Positions 4,627 to 53,613 of a DNA stretch of 64,000 nt are shown piece after piece. Origin of the DNA: Escherichia coli (GTDB lineage: Bacteria > Pseudomonadota > Gammaproteobacteria > Enterobacterales > Enterobacteriaceae); the NCBI RefSeq assembly GCF_036507355.1, contig NZ_AP027877.1; one strand, 5' to 3'. How positions within the stretch are numbered: the stretch's first letter is position 1; every line of letters starts with the position of its first letter. The notes beneath the pieces were generated by a model. That model was not told where the DNA came from and made no database searches. It saw only the letters and a program-made list of their open reading frames with translations. Made by a program: the position numbers and the translations under genes.

Positions 4627-4884
4627 ATTTATTAACCTTCCAATACCATCCTGAAAAGTATGAACGCGTAAGGGATAACGCGCGAAAAAGTTTACATCTG
4701 TCAGAGATTCTTAATATTGATGCGGTGAATAGATTAATACACTATTACAACAGAAAATAACCAGCTGATCACACTAATGATGGAAAATATGATGGTGTTA
4801 AATATTGTATTGGCTGGGGATTTTGATTGCGAACGCAGACCGTAGGCCAGATAAGGCGTTTACGCTAATCAGGTAACAAGGCGC

Positions 4885-4918
4885 GCCAAAAAGCAAAACG
4901 CCCGCATATGCGGGCGTT
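4885..4918 (-). terminator. intrinsic terminator downstream of uspA
   Basis: Perfect palindrome AACGCCCGCATATGCGGGCGTT followed on the minus strand by a T-rich run (TTTTGCTTTTT). Confidence 0.75.
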
Positions 4919-4942
4919 CAGGAACACGTCGTGGAGGGAAGA

Positions 4943-5377
4943 TTATTCTTCTTCGTCGCGCAGCGGAACAATCAGCATATCAACGTGAACGGTGTTGATC
5001 AGCTGACGTGCGGAAGACATCAGTTTGCTCCAGAAGTCCTGGTGGTGACCACAAACCACTAGATCCATATCGTATTTCTTGATTGCATCGACCAGAACCT
5101 GGCCCAGGTCGCCGCTGCCGCTCAGGGTTTCAGTGATTGGGTAGCCTGCATTAGTGGAAAGCTCGGTCAGCGCATGATGTGTCTCTTCAGAGATGCGTTT
5201 CTGCATATCACCAAGATTCACATCAATAAGCCCGGTATATAGGTCAGAGTAGTTTACATCTACGTGGATCAGAGAAACTTTCGCATTGTATGGGCGAGCC
5301 ATAGAGACTGCTTTCTCTACCAGAACTTTGCTTTCCGGGGAGAGATCGACCGCGATGAGAATGTGTTTATAAGCCAT
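4943..5377 (-). CDS. uspA: universal stress protein A
   Basis: 144-aa [19 protein letters not shown]..., Usp domain. Confidence 0.95.
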
Positions 5378-5767
5378 AGTGTTACTCCTTCCATAAAGTT
5401 GTCGATGACTGGCCAGCTAGCGTTTCTTGTGCCGTTACGTCACCCGCGTCCTGCGAACTACGTGCGCGGGGCTAACCCAGCCGTAAAGATTCAGTGTTAA
5501 GACCATCCTTACCTTATAGCGACCCGGATGATCCGTCAATCCGCCTTGCTTACCCGTTAGATAAACAAATTTTCGACATGAATATATTGATAGTGGTTAA
5601 CCTTCTGGAAAAAAAACAACCTGATCTCCTACACTATCTATAGAGCCGCTCGGATGTTGGTCACCACAAAAGCGGTTTCTCCAGGACCTGGTGTTAACTG
5701 ATTGGCAGCGTATCGGGAGCGGTAGCCCCGGGGTGGAACTCCGCGGGCAGGTCGCCGGGGAGGAGGT

Positions 5768-6103
5768 ATGATAAGCACCGTCGCATTATTTTGGGCTTTA
5801 TGTGTCGTTTGCATTGTTAACATGGCGCGCTATTTCTCATCACTACGCGCGTTGTTAGTGGTACTGCGTAACTGCGATCCATTGCTCTATCAATATGTTG
5901 ATGGAGGGGGCTTTTTTACCTCACATGGCCAACCCAACAAACAGGTGCGTCTCGTTTGGTATATCTATGCCCAACGTTATCGCGATCATCACGATGATGA
6001 GTTTATTCGCCGCTGTGAGCGGGTGCGTCGGCAGTTTATTCTGACCAGCGCATTGTGTGGTCTGGTGGTGGTCAGCCTGATTGCCTTGATGATTTGGCAT
6101 TAA
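5768..6103 (+). CDS. uspB: universal stress protein B (small membrane protein)
   Basis: 111-aa ORF with two hydrophobic segments, divergent from uspA. Confidence 0.9.
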
Positions 6104-7904: not shown

Positions 7905-9107
7905 GTGGAAAGGTTTGATGCCATTATTATAGGCGCTGGTGCGGCGGGTATGTTCTGTTCTGCGCTGGCAGGTCAGGCAGGACGCCGGGTTCTGCTGATC
8001 GATAATGGTAAAAAACCAGGGCGCAAAATCCTTATGTCTGGCGGTGGGCGCTGCAACTTTACCAACCTTTATGTCGAACCGGGCGCTTATCTGAGCCAGA
8101 ATCCGCATTTTTGTAAGTCTGCACTCGCGCGTTTTACCCAGTGGGATTTCATTGATCTGGTCAATAAACACGGCATCGCCTGGCACGAGAAAACGTTAGG
8201 GCAACTCTTCTGCGATGACTCCGCTCAGCAGATTGTCGACATGCTGGTGGATGAGTGCGAGAAGGGCAATGTGACCTTCAGATTGCGTAGCGAAGTGCTG
8301 AGCGTGGAGAAGGATGATACAGGCTTCACGCTTGAACTGAACGGCATGACTGTCGGTTGCGAAAAGCTAGTCATCGCGACCGGTGGACTGTCAATGCCGG
8401 GGCTGGGCGCGTCGCCGTTTGGTTATAAGATTGCCGAACAATTTGGCCTCAACGTGCTGCCGACCCGCGCGGGTCTGGTGCCATTCACTCTGCATAAACC
8501 GTTGCTCGAAGAGTTACAGGTGCTGGCAGGCGTGGCGGTGCCTTCCGTGATTACCGCTGAAAACGGCACCGTTTTCCGTGAGAACTTACTCTTCACCCAT
8601 CGCGGCCTGTCTGGACCGGCGGTGTTGCAGATTTCCAGCTACTGGCAACCGGGGGAATTTGTCAGCATCAATCTGCTACCGGATGTGGATCTCGAAACCT
8701 TCCTGAATGAGCAGCGTAACGCACATCCGAATCAAAGCCTGAAAAACACACTGGCGGTTCATCTACCGAAGCGGTTGGTTGAACGCTTACAGCAAATCGG
8801 GCAAATCCCGGATGTCTCGCTAAAACAGCTCAACGTGCGTGACCAACAGGCACTGATTAGCACATTGACCGACTGGCGCGTACAACCCAACGGCACTGAA
8901 GGCTATCGCACTGCCGAAGTGACGCTCGGCGGCGTGGACACTAACGAACTCTCTTCACGGACGATGGAAGCGCGCAAAGTGCCTGGGCTGTACTTTATCG
9001 GCGAAGTGATGGACGTCACCGGCTGGCTGGGGGGCTATAACTTCCAGTGGGCGTGGTCGAGTGCATGGGCTTGTGCGCAGGATTTGATTGCAGCGAAGTC
9101 GTCCTGA
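7905..9107 (+). CDS. yhiN: FAD-dependent oxidoreductase (HI0933-like flavoprotein)
   Basis: 400-aa ORF with N-terminal GAGAAG dinucleotide-binding motif. Confidence 0.85.
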   Translation: MERFDAIIIGAGAAGMFCSALAGQAGRRVLLIDNGKKPGRKILMSGGGRCNFTNLYVEPGAYLSQNPHFCKSALARFTQWDFIDLVNKHGIAWHEKTLGQLFCDDSAQQIVDMLVDECEKGNVTFRLRSEVLSVEKDDTGFTLELNGMTVGCEKLVIATGGLSMPGLGASPFGYKIAEQFGLNVLPTRAGLVPFTLHKPLLEELQVLAGVAVPSVITAENGTVFRENLLFTHRGLSGPAVLQISSYWQPGEFVSINLLPDVDLETFLNEQRNAHPNQSLKNTLAVHLPKRLVERLQQIGQIPDVSLKQLNVRDQQALISTLTDWRVQPNGTEGYRTAEVTLGGVDTNELSSRTMEARKVPGLYFIGEVMDVTGWLGGYNFQWAWSSAWACAQDLIAAKSS

Positions 9108-9371
9108 CCTATTATCTAAAGATGAAAATTATTAGAGCCGCATTAAAAATGAGCTAATTTTGATAGTGGTTATCTTGTGATTATTTTCTAATGAGCCCGT
9201 GAGCTGAAACCCTCCATGCTTAATAAAAGGTGGAGGGAAAGTGATTGAAAACTCACCCAGTGATCAGCTCTTTATAAAACATGAACAGGTTGAAAAAGAC
9301 AGTAACTTTGCTGTTTTTTTATCCTTAACCACTATGCATTAATGCTGTGTTATTTCATTCTACCTAAGAAA

Positions 9372-23053: not shown

Positions 23054-24404
23054 AAACCGTGCTCCGCGTCATTCGGAAAATGCCATACAGTACCAGGGCG
23101 ATAACCGGCACCAGACCAATGGCGATGAGATTGCCGTTGAAGATTTCCAGCAGCCAGAAGCGGAACGGGTTACCGCCATCAAGGAAACTGGAAACCTGGC
23201 CGCTGGAGCCTTCGGCAAATTTGAAGTTAACGTCTTTCGCCATGCCGGTAATAAACGGTGCGATTTTAGTCGCAATCCACAGGTCGGCAATAATCACCGG
23301 GATCGCCGCCAGAACGGTGCGGAAAATATTGCCACGGCTGGCTAAAGCAATCATCGACGCCATTACCGCCAGGTTGGCAAGGTCGCCAAGCGGCAGGACT
23401 TCATTACCTGGGAGGACAAACGCGATAAAGACCGAGATTGGCGTTAGCAGCAGGGCGGTGGAGATAATCGCCGGATTACCTACGGCAACGGCGATATCCA
23501 GTCCGATATAGAGATCGTCACGGTCAGGGTATTTGGCATTGAGATACTTTTTAATGGCTTCAGACAGCGGTAATAAACCTTCCATCAGGATGCGAACCAT
23601 GCGTGGCAGGATGAACATCACACCGCCAATGCTGATGCCAAGCAGCAACACTTTTTTGAAATCGTATCCTGCAATCACGCCGAGCAGTATGCCCAGAATA
23701 GTGCCAACCATCATCGGTTCGCCGAAGATGCCAAACTTTTTCTGTACGGTTTCCGGGTCGATATGAATACGATTGAGGCCGGGGATATGGTCGATGATTT
23801 TGTCGACCAGCAGACCGACCGGGAAGAACACCACCGAAGAGAGCGTCGGCAATGAGATCCCTTCCAGTCCAAAGTATTTTTGTACCAGTGGCGCAGACCA
23901 GTCGGCGAGTTTAAGTACTACCACCGCAGCAATCGCCGCCGCCAGCAAACCAAAGAACAGGCTGCCGGTGCTGTAATAAACCAACGTACCAGCAAGGGCA
24001 AAATGCCAGTAGTTCCACATATCTACGTCAACGGTACGGGTTTTATTTAACGCCAGCATCGCCACGTTAATCAGAATGGTCAGGGGAATAACAAACGGGG
24101 CAATTGGCGAACCCCATGTAATAGCGGAAAGCGGCGGCCAGCCTAAATCTACCACCGGTAAATTAATTCCGGTGCGTTCAACCATCGCCTGGGCCGCTGG
24201 CCCGACATTGCTGGTCAGAATATCGAAAATGGCATAAATACCGACAAAACCAATGCCGACTGTTAATGACGAACGTAAGGCTTTAGCGGGTTTTACTTTA
24301 AAACAGAGAGCAAGAATAAATAACACCAACGGCAACATTACCGTCGGGCCAAATCCCAATATATATTGCACAATATTATAGAGGGTATGCGCGATATCGT
24401 TCAT
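23046..24404 (-). CDS. PTS EIIC component (galactitol family)
   Basis: ORF 23046..24434, polytopic membrane protein; likely start MNDIAHTLYN at about 24404 preceded by a GAGG RBS. Confidence 0.8.
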   Translation of the reverse strand: MNDIAHTLYNIVQYILGFGPTVMLPLVLFILALCFKVKPAKALRSSLTVGIGFVGIYAIFDILTSNVGPAAQAMVERTGINLPVVDLGWPPLSAITWGSPIAPFVIPLTILINVAMLALNKTRTVDVDMWNYWHFALAGTLVYYSTGSLFFGLLAAAIAAVVVLKLADWSAPLVQKYFGLEGISLPTLSSVVFFPVGLLVDKIIDHIPGLNRIHIDPETVQKKFGIFGEPMMVGTILGILLGVIAGYDFKKVLLLGISIGGVMFILPRMVRILMEGLLPLSEAIKKYLNAKYPDRDDLYIGLDIAVAVGNPAIISTALLLTPISVFIAFVLPGNEVLPLGDLANLAVMASMIALASRGNIFRTVLAAIPVIIADLWIATKIAPFITGMAKDVNFKFAEGSSGQVSSFLDGGNPFRFWLLEIFNGNLIAIGLVPVIALVLYGIFRMTRSTVYA

Positions 24405-24480
24405 AATAAACCTCTTTTTCAGGCGAGAGCGCACCTCGCGTTAGCGCCTGATGGAGTGGGTTGAAATTAATTATTATTAA

Positions 24481-24762
24481 TTAATTTTTAAGGATCGAAA
24501 CAATTTGCGCCAGTACTTTCTCTTCGCCAATACCGGTAATAATCGGCAAGCCGTTAACTACCGGGACGTCGAGTTCATAAGGCACTTTAGTCGTTGAGAC
24601 TACCAGTGCTACGCCATCAGTATTTCCAGGTAAAGAGGCAACGTTGGTTTGGGAATAATTGACGTTAAGACCGTGCTCTTTACAATATTCCATGACTTTT
24701 TCTGTTACCGCCGTGGATGTGGCAATACCCGTGGCGCAGACAAATAAAATGGTTTGACTCAT
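24481..24762 (-). CDS. PTS EIIB component (galactitol type)
   Basis: 93-aa ORF; MSQTILFVCATGIATS with the active-site Cys. Confidence 0.8.
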   Translation of the reverse strand: MSQTILFVCATGIATSTAVTEKVMEYCKEHGLNVNYSQTNVASLPGNTDGVALVVSTTKVPYELDVPVVNGLPIITGIGEEKVLAQIVSILKN

Positions 24763-25232
24763 ATTTCACCTCGTTCTTTCATTTTGTTTAAGATTACTGT
24801 GTGTATTTCTGTTGTTTCCATCGCAAGCAGGGCTTGCATAAAGGGTGTATCCTGAATCATTTCCATAATCCAGCCCAGGGCATTTAATTGTTTATTACTT
24901 TCGCTTAAGGCGAGCAAAAAAATCACCCTGACAGGTACGGGGTCAGGATCGCCGCCCATATCGGCAAACTCTACCGGTTCCGGCAGGATGCCGACGGCAA
25001 TTGCATTGTGCCTGACATGTTTATGGTCCGTGTGCGGAATAGCGACGCACGGTGGTTCGGTAGGCAGCCCCGTTGGGTACGTCGCCTCACGTTTCAGTAC
25101 GTGATCGGCAAAATCAGGGACGACCAGCTCGGCGGCAACCAACGGTTGCGCTAACTGACGGATGATCTGTTCAACGCTTAACCCTGCCGGAAGTCGTTGA
25201 ATATAATTTTCCTGAAAATGTATGCCTTGCAT
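24759..25232 (-). CDS. PTS EIIA component (type 2, mannitol/fructose family)
   Basis: 157-aa ORF; conserved His in AIPHTD. Confidence 0.75.
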   Translation of the reverse strand: MQGIHFQENYIQRLPAGLSVEQIIRQLAQPLVAAELVVPDFADHVLKREATYPTGLPTEPPCVAIPHTDHKHVRHNAIAVGILPEPVEFADMGGDPDPVPVRVIFLLALSESNKQLNALGWIMEMIQDTPFMQALLAMETTEIHTVILNKMKERGEI

Positions 25233-25256: not shown

Positions 25257-26003
25257 TTAACTCACTTCCCGCCGTTGCAGTACGGTGCCAAGATAATATT
25301 TATTTCCTTTTAACCAGACGTTGCCAAACTCAATGGGTAAACCTCGGGAGAAAAAGACTAACTGCTCCAGATGCAAAACGGGTGCGTCTTCACTGATATC
25401 TAAAAAATGACCACGTTCATTACCAATTAATCGCGCGGCATAGCGACTTTCCGAGTAACGAATTTTTCTTTGCGACAAACTTTCTATTGTTGGAAATAAA
25501 TTATGTTGATTAAAATCGATTTCCGCAATACCGGGGCATAGCTCAATATTGATACGGTTCTCTATCAGCATCGCTTTTTCATCACCAATTGAGCGTAAGC
25601 GTTCAAGGTAAAGAATATCCTGACCGGGCGTTATTCTTAATTTCTCTGCCACATAACGATTAGCCGGTTCAATCCGTGACGTAATAACTTCAGTGGTAAA
25701 ATGTATTTTCTGGCTTTCCAGCGATTCCGCGAATGACAATAATCCTTCACCTAACGGATATGCCACGTTCTCTTTTTTGACAAATGTTCCCTTACCCTGG
25801 ACCTGTATTAACACGCCTTCTTTTACCAGTTGGGCGACCGCTTTTTTAACGGTTCCCCGACTCACTTCCAGCATATCCATAATCTGGTATTCCGAAGGAA
25901 TGCGATCGTCTTCCACCAGATCTCCGGTATAAATACTTTCTCTTATCCACTCCACCACTTGTTGATAGAGCGGTATTTGTGACGACTTACTTAATGATTT
26001 CAT
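25257..26003 (-). CDS. GntR-family transcriptional regulator (HTH plus UTRA effector domain)
   Basis: ORF 25257..26012; N-terminal winged-HTH (IPSEYQIMDMLEVSRGTVKKAVAQLVKEGVL), C-terminal UTRA-like domain; directly upstream of the PTS genes on the same strand. Confidence 0.8.
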   Translation of the reverse strand: MKSLSKSSQIPLYQQVVEWIRESIYTGDLVEDDRIPSEYQIMDMLEVSRGTVKKAVAQLVKEGVLIQVQGKGTFVKKENVAYPLGEGLLSFAESLESQKIHFTTEVITSRIEPANRYVAEKLRITPGQDILYLERLRSIGDEKAMLIENRINIELCPGIAEIDFNQHNLFPTIESLSQRKIRYSESRYAARLIGNERGHFLDISEDAPVLHLEQLVFFSRGLPIEFGNVWLKGNKYYLGTVLQRREVS

Positions 26004-26026
26004 GGCGCGCACCTGAACATTTACAG

Positions 26027-26058
26027 TTGTCTATGGACAATCATGGACAACTTCAAGC
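26027..26058 (-). promoter_or_regulatory. candidate GntR-type operator upstream of the regulator gene
   Basis: Perfect palindrome TTGTCTATGGACAA followed by a repeated TGGACAAC half-site, about 25 nt upstream of the regulator start. Confidence 0.4.
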
Positions 26059-26201
26059 GTATAGTAGGTGAACGGGAGAAAAAGAGGATCGAAGCGTCTC
26101 ACATTTTGAGGGACCAAATCGTGATCAAAAAAATGTGACGTGAGTCGATATGTGTCAGAAGTTTACTGCGCCGTAAGGAAATAACGGCGCGTTGGTAGGT
26201 G

Positions 26202-29005
<2,804 letters not shown>

Positions 29006-52899: not shown

Positions 52900-53613
52900 A
52901 TGGAAAAAGTCATGTTGTCCTTTGACAAAGTCAGCGCCCACTACGGCAAAATCCAGGCGCTGCATGAGGTGAGCCTGCATATCAATCAGGGCGAGATTGT
53001 CACGCTGATTGGCGCGAACGGGGCGGGGAAAACCACCTTGCTTGGCACATTATGCGGCGATCCACGCGCCACCAGCGGGCGAATTGTGTTTGATGATAAA
53101 GACATTACCGACTGGCAGACGGCGAAAATCATGCGCGAAGCGGTAGCGATTGTCCCGGAAGGGCGTCGCGTCTTCTCGCGGATGACGGTGGAAGAGAACC
53201 TGGCGATGGGCGGCTTCTTTGCCGAACGCGACCAGTTCCAGGAGCGCATAAAGTGGGTGTATGAACTGTTCCCGCGTCTGCATGAGCGCCGTGTTCAGCG
53301 GGCAGGCACCATGTCCGGCGGTGAACAGCAGATGCTGGCGATTGGTCGCGCGCTGATGAGCAACCCGCGTTTGTTGTTGCTTGATGAGCCATCGCTCGGT
53401 CTTGCGCCGATTATCATCCAGCAAATTTTCGACACCATCGAGCAGCTGCGCGAGCAGGGGATGACTATCTTCCTCGTCGAGCAGAACGCCAACCAGGCGC
53501 TAAAGCTGGCGGATCGCGGCTACGTGCTGGAAAACGGTCATGTGGTGCTCTCCGATACTGGTGATGCACTACTGGCGAACGAAGCGGTGAGAAGTGCGTA
53601 TTTAGGCGGGTAA
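52900..53613 (+). CDS. livF: branched-chain amino acid ABC ATPase
   Basis: ORF 52888..53613; likely start MEKVMLSFDKV; Walker A GANGAGKTT. Confidence 0.93.
   Translation: MEKVMLSFDKVSAHYGKIQALHEVSLHINQGEIVTLIGANGAGKTTLLGTLCGDPRATSGRIVFDDKDITDWQTAKIMREAVAIVPEGRRVFSRMTVEENLAMGGFFAERDQFQERIKWVYELFPRLHERRVQRAGTMSGGEQQMLAIGRALMSNPRLLLLDEPSLGLAPIIIQQIFDTIEQLREQGMTIFLVEQNANQALKLADRGYVLENGHVVLSDTGDALLANEAVRSAYLGG

Follow-up and report, generated by a model that had tools for sequence, protein, structure and literature searches.

The window analysed here is a stretch of 64,000 nucleotides of Escherichia coli DNA. On its minus strand nikABCDE-nikR (nikR stop at 26202) is followed by a seven-gene cluster on the same strand, and then by hicAB and yhhJ. 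The first gene of the cluster (25257..26003, minus strand; ATG at 26003, stop at 25257) encodes a regulator of 248 aa. It is followed on the minus strand by genes for PTS IIA (25232–24759), PTS IIB (24762–24481), a Gat-family PTS IIC (24434–23046), an FGGY kinase (23053–21545), an HPr-like protein (21555–21286), and a class II aldolase (21254–20394). The regulator gene directly precedes the PTS genes, as the preliminary description of this locus stated. The gaps between the seven genes are 0–46 bp, and a scan of the cluster for internal promoter-like or terminator-like signals showed no excess of either. The six structural genes (20394..25232, minus strand) are predicted to be co-transcribed with the regulator.

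Homology to E. coli K-12, which carries rhsB at this place, ends exactly at the nikR stop codon, so the whole 198-bp regulatory region is island-derived. The island extends from 26202 to approximately 19700 and is present in 1635–1637 of 5426 complete E. coli genomes (~30%), among them O157:H7, ST131, APEC O2:K1, and a Nissle derivative. A HicA/HicB toxin–antitoxin pair lies at its far end, ahead of yhhJ. Just past nikR, in island-specific DNA, there is an inverted repeat (GCGCCGT...ACGGCGC, 26166–26191). It has no T-run and was not called a terminator; it could limit read-through from nikR into the operon.

The regulator has an N-terminal GntR winged helix-turn-helix (wHTH) domain (PF00392, residues 12–75) and a C-terminal UTRA domain (PF07702, residues 98–236), the domain pair of the HutC subfamily, and on this basis it is assigned to that subfamily. 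When compared with the named HutC equivalogs (PhnF, TreR, HutC, the LSA1692 type, PRK09764, and PRK11402), it scored under every NCBIfam cut-off, the best score being 123.6 bits against a cut-off of 275. It is accordingly a member of an orthologous group that has not been named. The closest characterised relative is NagR/YvoA of Bacillus subtilis (E 1e-22). The PDB entry 3HFI, a 'putative regulator' from structural genomics, corresponds to the UTRA domain of this protein (residues 79–248, E 3e-107), which means that a structure of its effector-binding domain already exists.

A profile of the regulator was used to scan one genome per species, and this yielded 80 loci of approximately 12 kb each. 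They come from many Enterobacterales and from Gilliamella, Enterococcus, Selenomonas/Centipeda, and Atopobiaceae. In the 50 or more closest loci (regulator identity of at least 45%) the regulator is clustered with genes for IIA, IIB, and IIC, an FGGY kinase, and an aldolase. In the Collinsella-type loci (~43% regulator identity) the only common feature is a nearby aldolase gene. From these orthologues we aligned the upstream regions of 16 that represent different genera and whose regulators are 83–99% identical in protein sequence (alignment A2).

The element of interest lies upstream of the regulator. The plus strand at 26027–26040 reads TTGTCTATGGACAA, and its reverse complement is TTGTCCATAGACAA. 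This sequence had been described as a perfect 14-bp dyad. The arms TTGTC and GACAA are perfect, but the T at position 6 and the G at position 9 have no counterpart in the other half, and symmetry holds at 12 of 14 positions; perfect versions occur in orthologues, for instance TTGTCTATAGACAA (L005–L007 and the Salmonella locus L152) and TTGTCCATGGACAA (L013). The sequence ATGGACAA at 26033–26040 recurs as ATGGACAA(C) at 26043–26050, at an offset of exactly 10 bp, and the half-site repeat noted earlier is thus present. Read on the gene (minus) strand, the region is GAAG-TTGTCCATGA-TTGTCCATAGACAA-CTG, with its near edge 23 nt 5′ of the regulator ATG (26003), where about 25 nt had been given. We refer to the dyad (26027..26040, minus strand, reading TTGTCCATAGACAA) as box B and to the direct-repeat half-site (26043..26050, minus strand, reading TTGTCCAT) as box A. 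Box A starts 10 bp upstream of box B.

Box B, as TTGT-CCATAG-ACAA, conforms to the GntR-family operator pattern (NyGTNxACNy palindrome) with its 12/14 symmetry, and the GT...AC core that had been taken as typical of this family is present as an inverted core (consensus according to PMC4494728). In the window, as in every orthologue, 6 nt separate GT from AC, which places the centres of the half-sites one helical turn apart, as they are in the direct boxes. Operators of the HutC subfamily are mostly of the GTMTAKAC type with 4 nt from GT to AC, and the 6-nt distance sets this site apart from them. This spacing excludes the canonical HutC subtype and not HutC-type binding, given that the survey lists exceptions. 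In its location the site does behave like a HutC-type operator, lying upstream of an operon headed by a HutC-type regulator and being kept across the orthologous regulons. When compared with the direct-repeat operators of the FarR/MngR type, the window has direct boxes at exactly 10 bp, but the repeat unit is of another sequence and is accompanied by an inverted box.

In the alignment of 16 orthologues the sequence GTTGTaCATgATTGTCyATAGACAAC is almost invariant upstream of the regulator. Pairwise identity reaches 0.97 in box A and 0.95 in box B, compared with 0.42–0.51 for the spacers and 0.49–0.50 for third codon positions of the regulator gene. An identity of about 0.5 at third codon positions means that neutral divergence is near saturation, and the boxes are under strong purifying selection. 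The same two boxes precede the regulator orthologues of 16 Enterobacterales genera, Salmonella, Gilliamella, Enterococcus, and Selenomonas/Centipeda. Box A at the 10-bp offset is seen in all Enterobacterales orthologues and in a Firmicute locus (L109). The allelic variation that separates B2 strains of E. coli from the others leaves the boxes untouched, and likewise the –10 hexamer and the TGTGA core described below. Co-variation between the arms of the dyad is mixed; Erwinia-type sites alter both arms (TCGT...ACGA), and three other loci (L010, L021, and L022) alter one only.

More distant relatives show how the boxes can be arranged. In a second group of orthologues (group 2: Raoultella, Erwinia, Pantoea, Serratia, and Buttiauxella), where the regulator is 66–71% identical, the cluster is split into a PTS–kinase–dehydrogenase operon and a regulator–aldolase–HPr operon. 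Both promoters have box A and, 10 bp further on, either TTGTAyATAGACAA or a degenerate copy of it. In Gilliamella and Enterococcus the TTGTAYAT repeats of the orthologues are all direct and follow each other every 10 bp, with arrays of four to five phased boxes; there are four direct boxes at exactly 10-bp spacing in Gilliamella and four at 10 bp in Enterococcus canintestini and E. larvae. In the Enterococcus avium group TTGTACA boxes occur every 20 bp. The conserved unit is a set of TTGTNNA boxes in 10-bp phase, on one side of the helix, rather than a lone palindrome. E. coli has two direct boxes, the second of which overlaps an inverted box, and this pair forms the dyad. A composite pattern run over both strands of the 80 loci matched only at regulator and PTS promoters, apart from one weak match.

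The split clusters also differ in gene content. Those of Raoultella, Erwinia, and Pantoea contain two added Zn-dependent dehydrogenases (in L024 at 4777–5811 and 7936–9114), which hints at a polyol substrate in these bacteria. Since the E. coli and Salmonella clusters lack the dehydrogenases, the substrate there may be a ketose or an already-oxidised sugar.

The motif is specific within the window. We built a position weight matrix from 32 orthologous sites, leaving out the window itself, and scanned both strands of the 64 kb. The matrix scored 39.7 bits at 26025–26052 on the minus strand and 2.7 bits at the runner-up among non-overlapping matches, a difference of 37 bits. A search of the island for additional copies of the dyad had been proposed, and the same scan detected no further operator copies in the island or in the rest of the window. 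By simple counting, TTGTC-N4-GACAA is expected 0.04 times per 64-kb window and was found twice. The second occurrence is TTGTCCTTTGACAA at 52915–52928, in codons 6–10 of livF; considered as an operator, it is inside coding sequence and has no adjacent box A, and it is taken as chance. The ATGGACAA sequence by itself is not rare (three found compared with 2.2 expected).

A reverse approach gave a similar picture. A metagenome scan with TTGTNCATNNTTGTNNATAGACAA, which has 19 specified bases, returned 66 matches, and 54 of these sit 23–31 nt upstream of an orthologue of the regulator. Near-identical copies from E. coli make up most of the 54, which thus add few independent lineages; four orthologues of 83–88% identity and one Firmicute orthologue of 51% identity, that of L109, are included. 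One other match (L138) is the E. coli motif with too little downstream sequence to judge. The other 11 matches, all A/T-rich variants, fall in coding sequence or in unrelated surroundings, and their number is approximately that expected by chance.

The boxes occupy a fixed place relative to a putative promoter. A predicted –10 hexamer, TACTAT, is located at 26061..26066 on the minus strand, and the pattern TAnnnT is nearly invariant in alignment A2. The gap between the –10 hexamer and box A is fixed at 10 nt in group 1 of the orthologues and is 9–10 nt at most group-2 PTS promoters. Firmicute locus L109 has a canonical TTGACA-17-TATTAT promoter with box A 9 nt downstream, a layout that supports both the assignment of the –10 hexamer and the position of the operator downstream of it. 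At the E. coli promoter itself no –35 hexamer is recognisable, and a generic sigma-70 scan called no promoter in the intergenic region. The motif, its conservation, its specificity for the regulon, and its constant position relative to the –10 hexamer are established by these computations.

Two CRP-like sites, which the preliminary description had not mentioned, are predicted upstream. The proximal site, TGTGAGACGCTTCGAT (26088..26103, minus strand), has an identity of 0.91 and a TGTGA that is invariant in the 16 orthologues, and it matches the TGTGA-N6-TCACA core at 7 of 10 positions. The upstream site, ATCGACTCACGTCACA (26134..26149, minus strand), matches this core at 9–10 of 10 positions in most orthologues, being perfect in many; its left half is degenerate in E. 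coli, and the match in the window is 7 of 10. Transcription is predicted to start 7–8 nt past the –10 hexamer, at 26053..26054 (minus strand), and all aligned sequences have an A at 26053. With a start at 26054, 7 nt past the –10 hexamer, the CRP-like sites would be centred at approximately –41.5 and –87.5 and the boxes would extend from about +5 to +28, with box A at about +5 to +12 and box B at about +15 to +28. The proximal site would then be in the class II position, where a CRP site takes the place of the –35 hexamer. This placement is computed from the –10 hexamer, and the site has an invariant TGTGA but matches the core at just 7 of 10 positions. At the group-2 PTS promoter a site with 9 of 10 core positions is centred at –60.5/–61.5, the classic class I CRP position. 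Given the 7/10 matches and the lack of a sigma-70 call, the promoter assignment depends entirely on conservation. A TGATC block between the CRP-like sites (26123–26127, minus strand) has an identity of 0.93 in the 16 orthologues. We considered TGATC together with an AAAnT block as –35 and –10 elements, and rejected this pairing with its spacing of only 14 nt.

The leader contains a further conserved segment. A 17-nt block, ATGTTCAGGTGCGCRCC (26004–26020, minus strand), adjoins the regulator ATG, and its conservation equals that of the operator (0.95 identity). The block includes a Shine–Dalgarno-like sequence, CAGGTG (26010..26015, minus strand), which is invariant in alignment A2 and lies 6 nt before the ATG, as well as a GC-rich palindrome, GGTGCGC(A/G)CC. 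A hairpin that buries the Shine–Dalgarno sequence and AUG was also considered and set aside; it is weak (–5.5 kcal/mol, z –0.19), with one compensatory pair and no significant covariation. Part of the block, ATGTTCA (26014..26020, minus strand), is 20 bp past the start of box B and fits both the nTGTnnA pattern and the 10-bp register. It could be a further in-phase operator box, which is a speculative assignment at present.

In our judgment the element is most probably the operator of the adjacent HutC-type regulator and acts in repression. The preliminary description had likewise proposed an operator for the neighbouring GntR regulator with autoregulation and control of the whole operon, and the computational tests are all supportive of that proposal. 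From the sequence we infer that the regulator binds here, that its effect is negative, and that the promoter depends on CRP; the transcription start, the inducer, and the stoichiometry of binding in the following scheme are likewise predicted. With cAMP-CRP present, RNA polymerase would be able to use the promoter. When there is no sugar, the regulator would occupy the region from about +5 to +28 and keep polymerase either from binding or from escaping the promoter. One dimer may sit on the dyad, with a further subunit or dimer on box A. Repression would silence a single transcript for the regulator, PTS transporter, kinase, HPr-like protein, and aldolase. Upon import of the substrate, the sugar phosphate made by the PTS would bind to the UTRA domain and the repressor would leave the DNA, so that the whole operon is induced. 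With the regulator encoded at the head of the transcript, this arrangement would provide negative autoregulation as well as coordinate induction of the seven genes.

A broader form of this idea is that the operator, instead of being a classical palindrome for a single dimer, is a helically phased array of two to five TTGTNNA boxes, depending on lineage, in a 10-bp register and with GT-N6-AC where a box is inverted. The repressor would then build up on a single face of the DNA, beginning at about +5 and proceeding toward the start codon, in a layout that is kept from Firmicutes to Enterobacteria and is unlike the GT-N4-AC HutC site. The block at 26004–26020 would either be part of the array or add a second level of control, at translation, by which repressor synthesis is kept low. 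We offer this form tentatively and consider it possible but doubtful.

Other explanations for the boxes were weighed against repression by the adjacent regulator. The same HutC-type protein could bind them as an activator or dual regulator, for example by recruiting polymerase in a manner dependent on a sugar phosphate, and the promoter, having no –35 hexamer, does need some activator. However, the conserved CRP-like sites already explain activation, and boxes that begin 10 nt downstream of the –10 hexamer (about +5 to +28) are in a position typical of repression. The boxes of L109 are also downstream of a promoter that has canonical –35 and –10 elements, and the HutC relatives NagR/YvoA and DasR are named repressors in their PDB entries. 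Activation is therefore improbable. It is somewhat less probable still that the boxes belong to another DNA-binding protein, for instance a global regulator or, like H-NS, a nucleoid protein, while the GntR regulator binds elsewhere. This idea draws on reports that the orthologous Salmonella island is AT-rich and repressed by H-NS and that STM3784 is ArcA-dependent (PMC3604774, PMC3075218). Yet the motif bears the GT...AC signature of the GntR family and follows the regulator gene into Firmicutes and Orbales, in which those global regulators are absent or different, and the promoter alignment contains no alternative conserved dyad where the GntR regulator might bind instead. By eye, we also compared the site with the consensus sequences of ArcA, Cra, and the LacI family, and none fits.

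The boxes might also act in RNA, where box A could pair with the right arm of box B (AGUUGUC...GACAACU) into a hairpin at the 5′ end of the leader and affect mRNA stability or translation. RNAfold and RNAalifold both draw this hairpin at the predicted 5′ end, but its energy is no better than that of shuffled sequence (–12.6 kcal/mol, z –1.13) and no Rfam match was obtained at E <= 1 in 25800–26300. The TTGT/ACAA sequence itself is kept across phyla, beyond what pairing potential would call for, the direct repeats of Gilliamella and Enterococcus at 10- or 20-bp spacing are unable to pair, and the group-2 regulator promoters (TTGTATACAGATGA) lose the complementarity. A role in RNA thus seems very unlikely. 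The probability that the element is a functionless near-palindrome that arose by chance is close to nil. While ATGGACAA alone is no rarer than expected and TTGTC-N4-GACAA does occur a second time inside livF, a chance sequence would not be expected to hold identities of 0.95–0.97 where neutral positions are at about 0.5, to recur at two promoters per regulon in other genera, or to exceed the runner-up in the window by 37 bits.

If the boxes are the operator of the adjacent regulator, this site and CRP-dependent promoter would provide a direct handle on the sugar substrate of a widespread accessory island. A promoter reporter or the purified repressor, for which the effector domain is represented by 3HFI, could be used to find the inducer and hence the pathway. 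For the biology of GntR regulators, the site is a well-supported case of GT-N6-AC spacing with an equally conserved, phased extra box.

We looked for earlier accounts of this operator. No description was found in the searchable literature by flanking genes, gene-family terms, or motif, and neither this orthologous group nor the motif occurs in the accessible portion of the supplementary tables to the 2015 survey of GntR motifs. It is very likely that the operon follows ordinary repressor–operator logic that has not been described for it previously.

A known counterpart is the STM3779-STM3785 cluster of Salmonella enterica, of which the published account says only that it comprises a regulator, an aldolase, and a complete PTS of unknown specificity (PMC3604774). 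We equate the Salmonella locus of our set with this cluster by gene neighbourhood and not by accession match. It contains the same seven gene families, its regulator is 83% identical, and it has the same promoter layout and box A together with a perfect TTGTCTATAGACAA (L152, 6820–7010). By contrast with the E. coli island, it is inserted beside uhpT (uhpABCT) rather than nikR, and its aldolase and HPr genes have exchanged places. This counterpart (STM3779-3785) was gained by subspecies I.

As a comparison with GntR operators in general, the 2015 survey gives a family consensus of NyGTNxACNy, with 4 nt from GT to AC in most HutC sites (PMC4494728). The HutC operators of NagR/YvoA and the dre sites of DasR (NyGTMTAKACNy) resemble the present site in that an inverted GT...AC core surrounds A/T-rich central positions, that the site lies in the promoter of the regulator's own operon, and that the regulator has wHTH and UTRA domains. 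They differ in that GT and AC are usually separated by 4 nt, whereas the distance here is 6 nt (GTCCATAGAC). Many GntR palindromes are accompanied by an extra, weaker box 7–12 nt away (PMC4494728). The E. coli site also has an additional box on one side at a short, fixed distance (10 bp), but this box is as conserved as the palindrome (0.97 compared with 0.95) and so not weaker, and distant orthologues have four to five phased boxes. Among the exceptions with direct repeats are FarR (TGTATTAWTT) and NagQ (TGGTATT) (PMC4494728). FarR/MngR of E. coli and NagQ are like the present system in that a HutC-type regulator of a PTS sugar operon is paired with approximately 10-bp direct repeats starting with TGTA or TGTC, although the likeness of the FarR repeat to the present site is limited to TGTAT. 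Unlike these, the E. coli site adds an inverted box and is a hybrid of direct and inverted repeats. The site thus fits known GntR themes, and its GT-N6-AC spacing and phased boxes are a modest variation on them.
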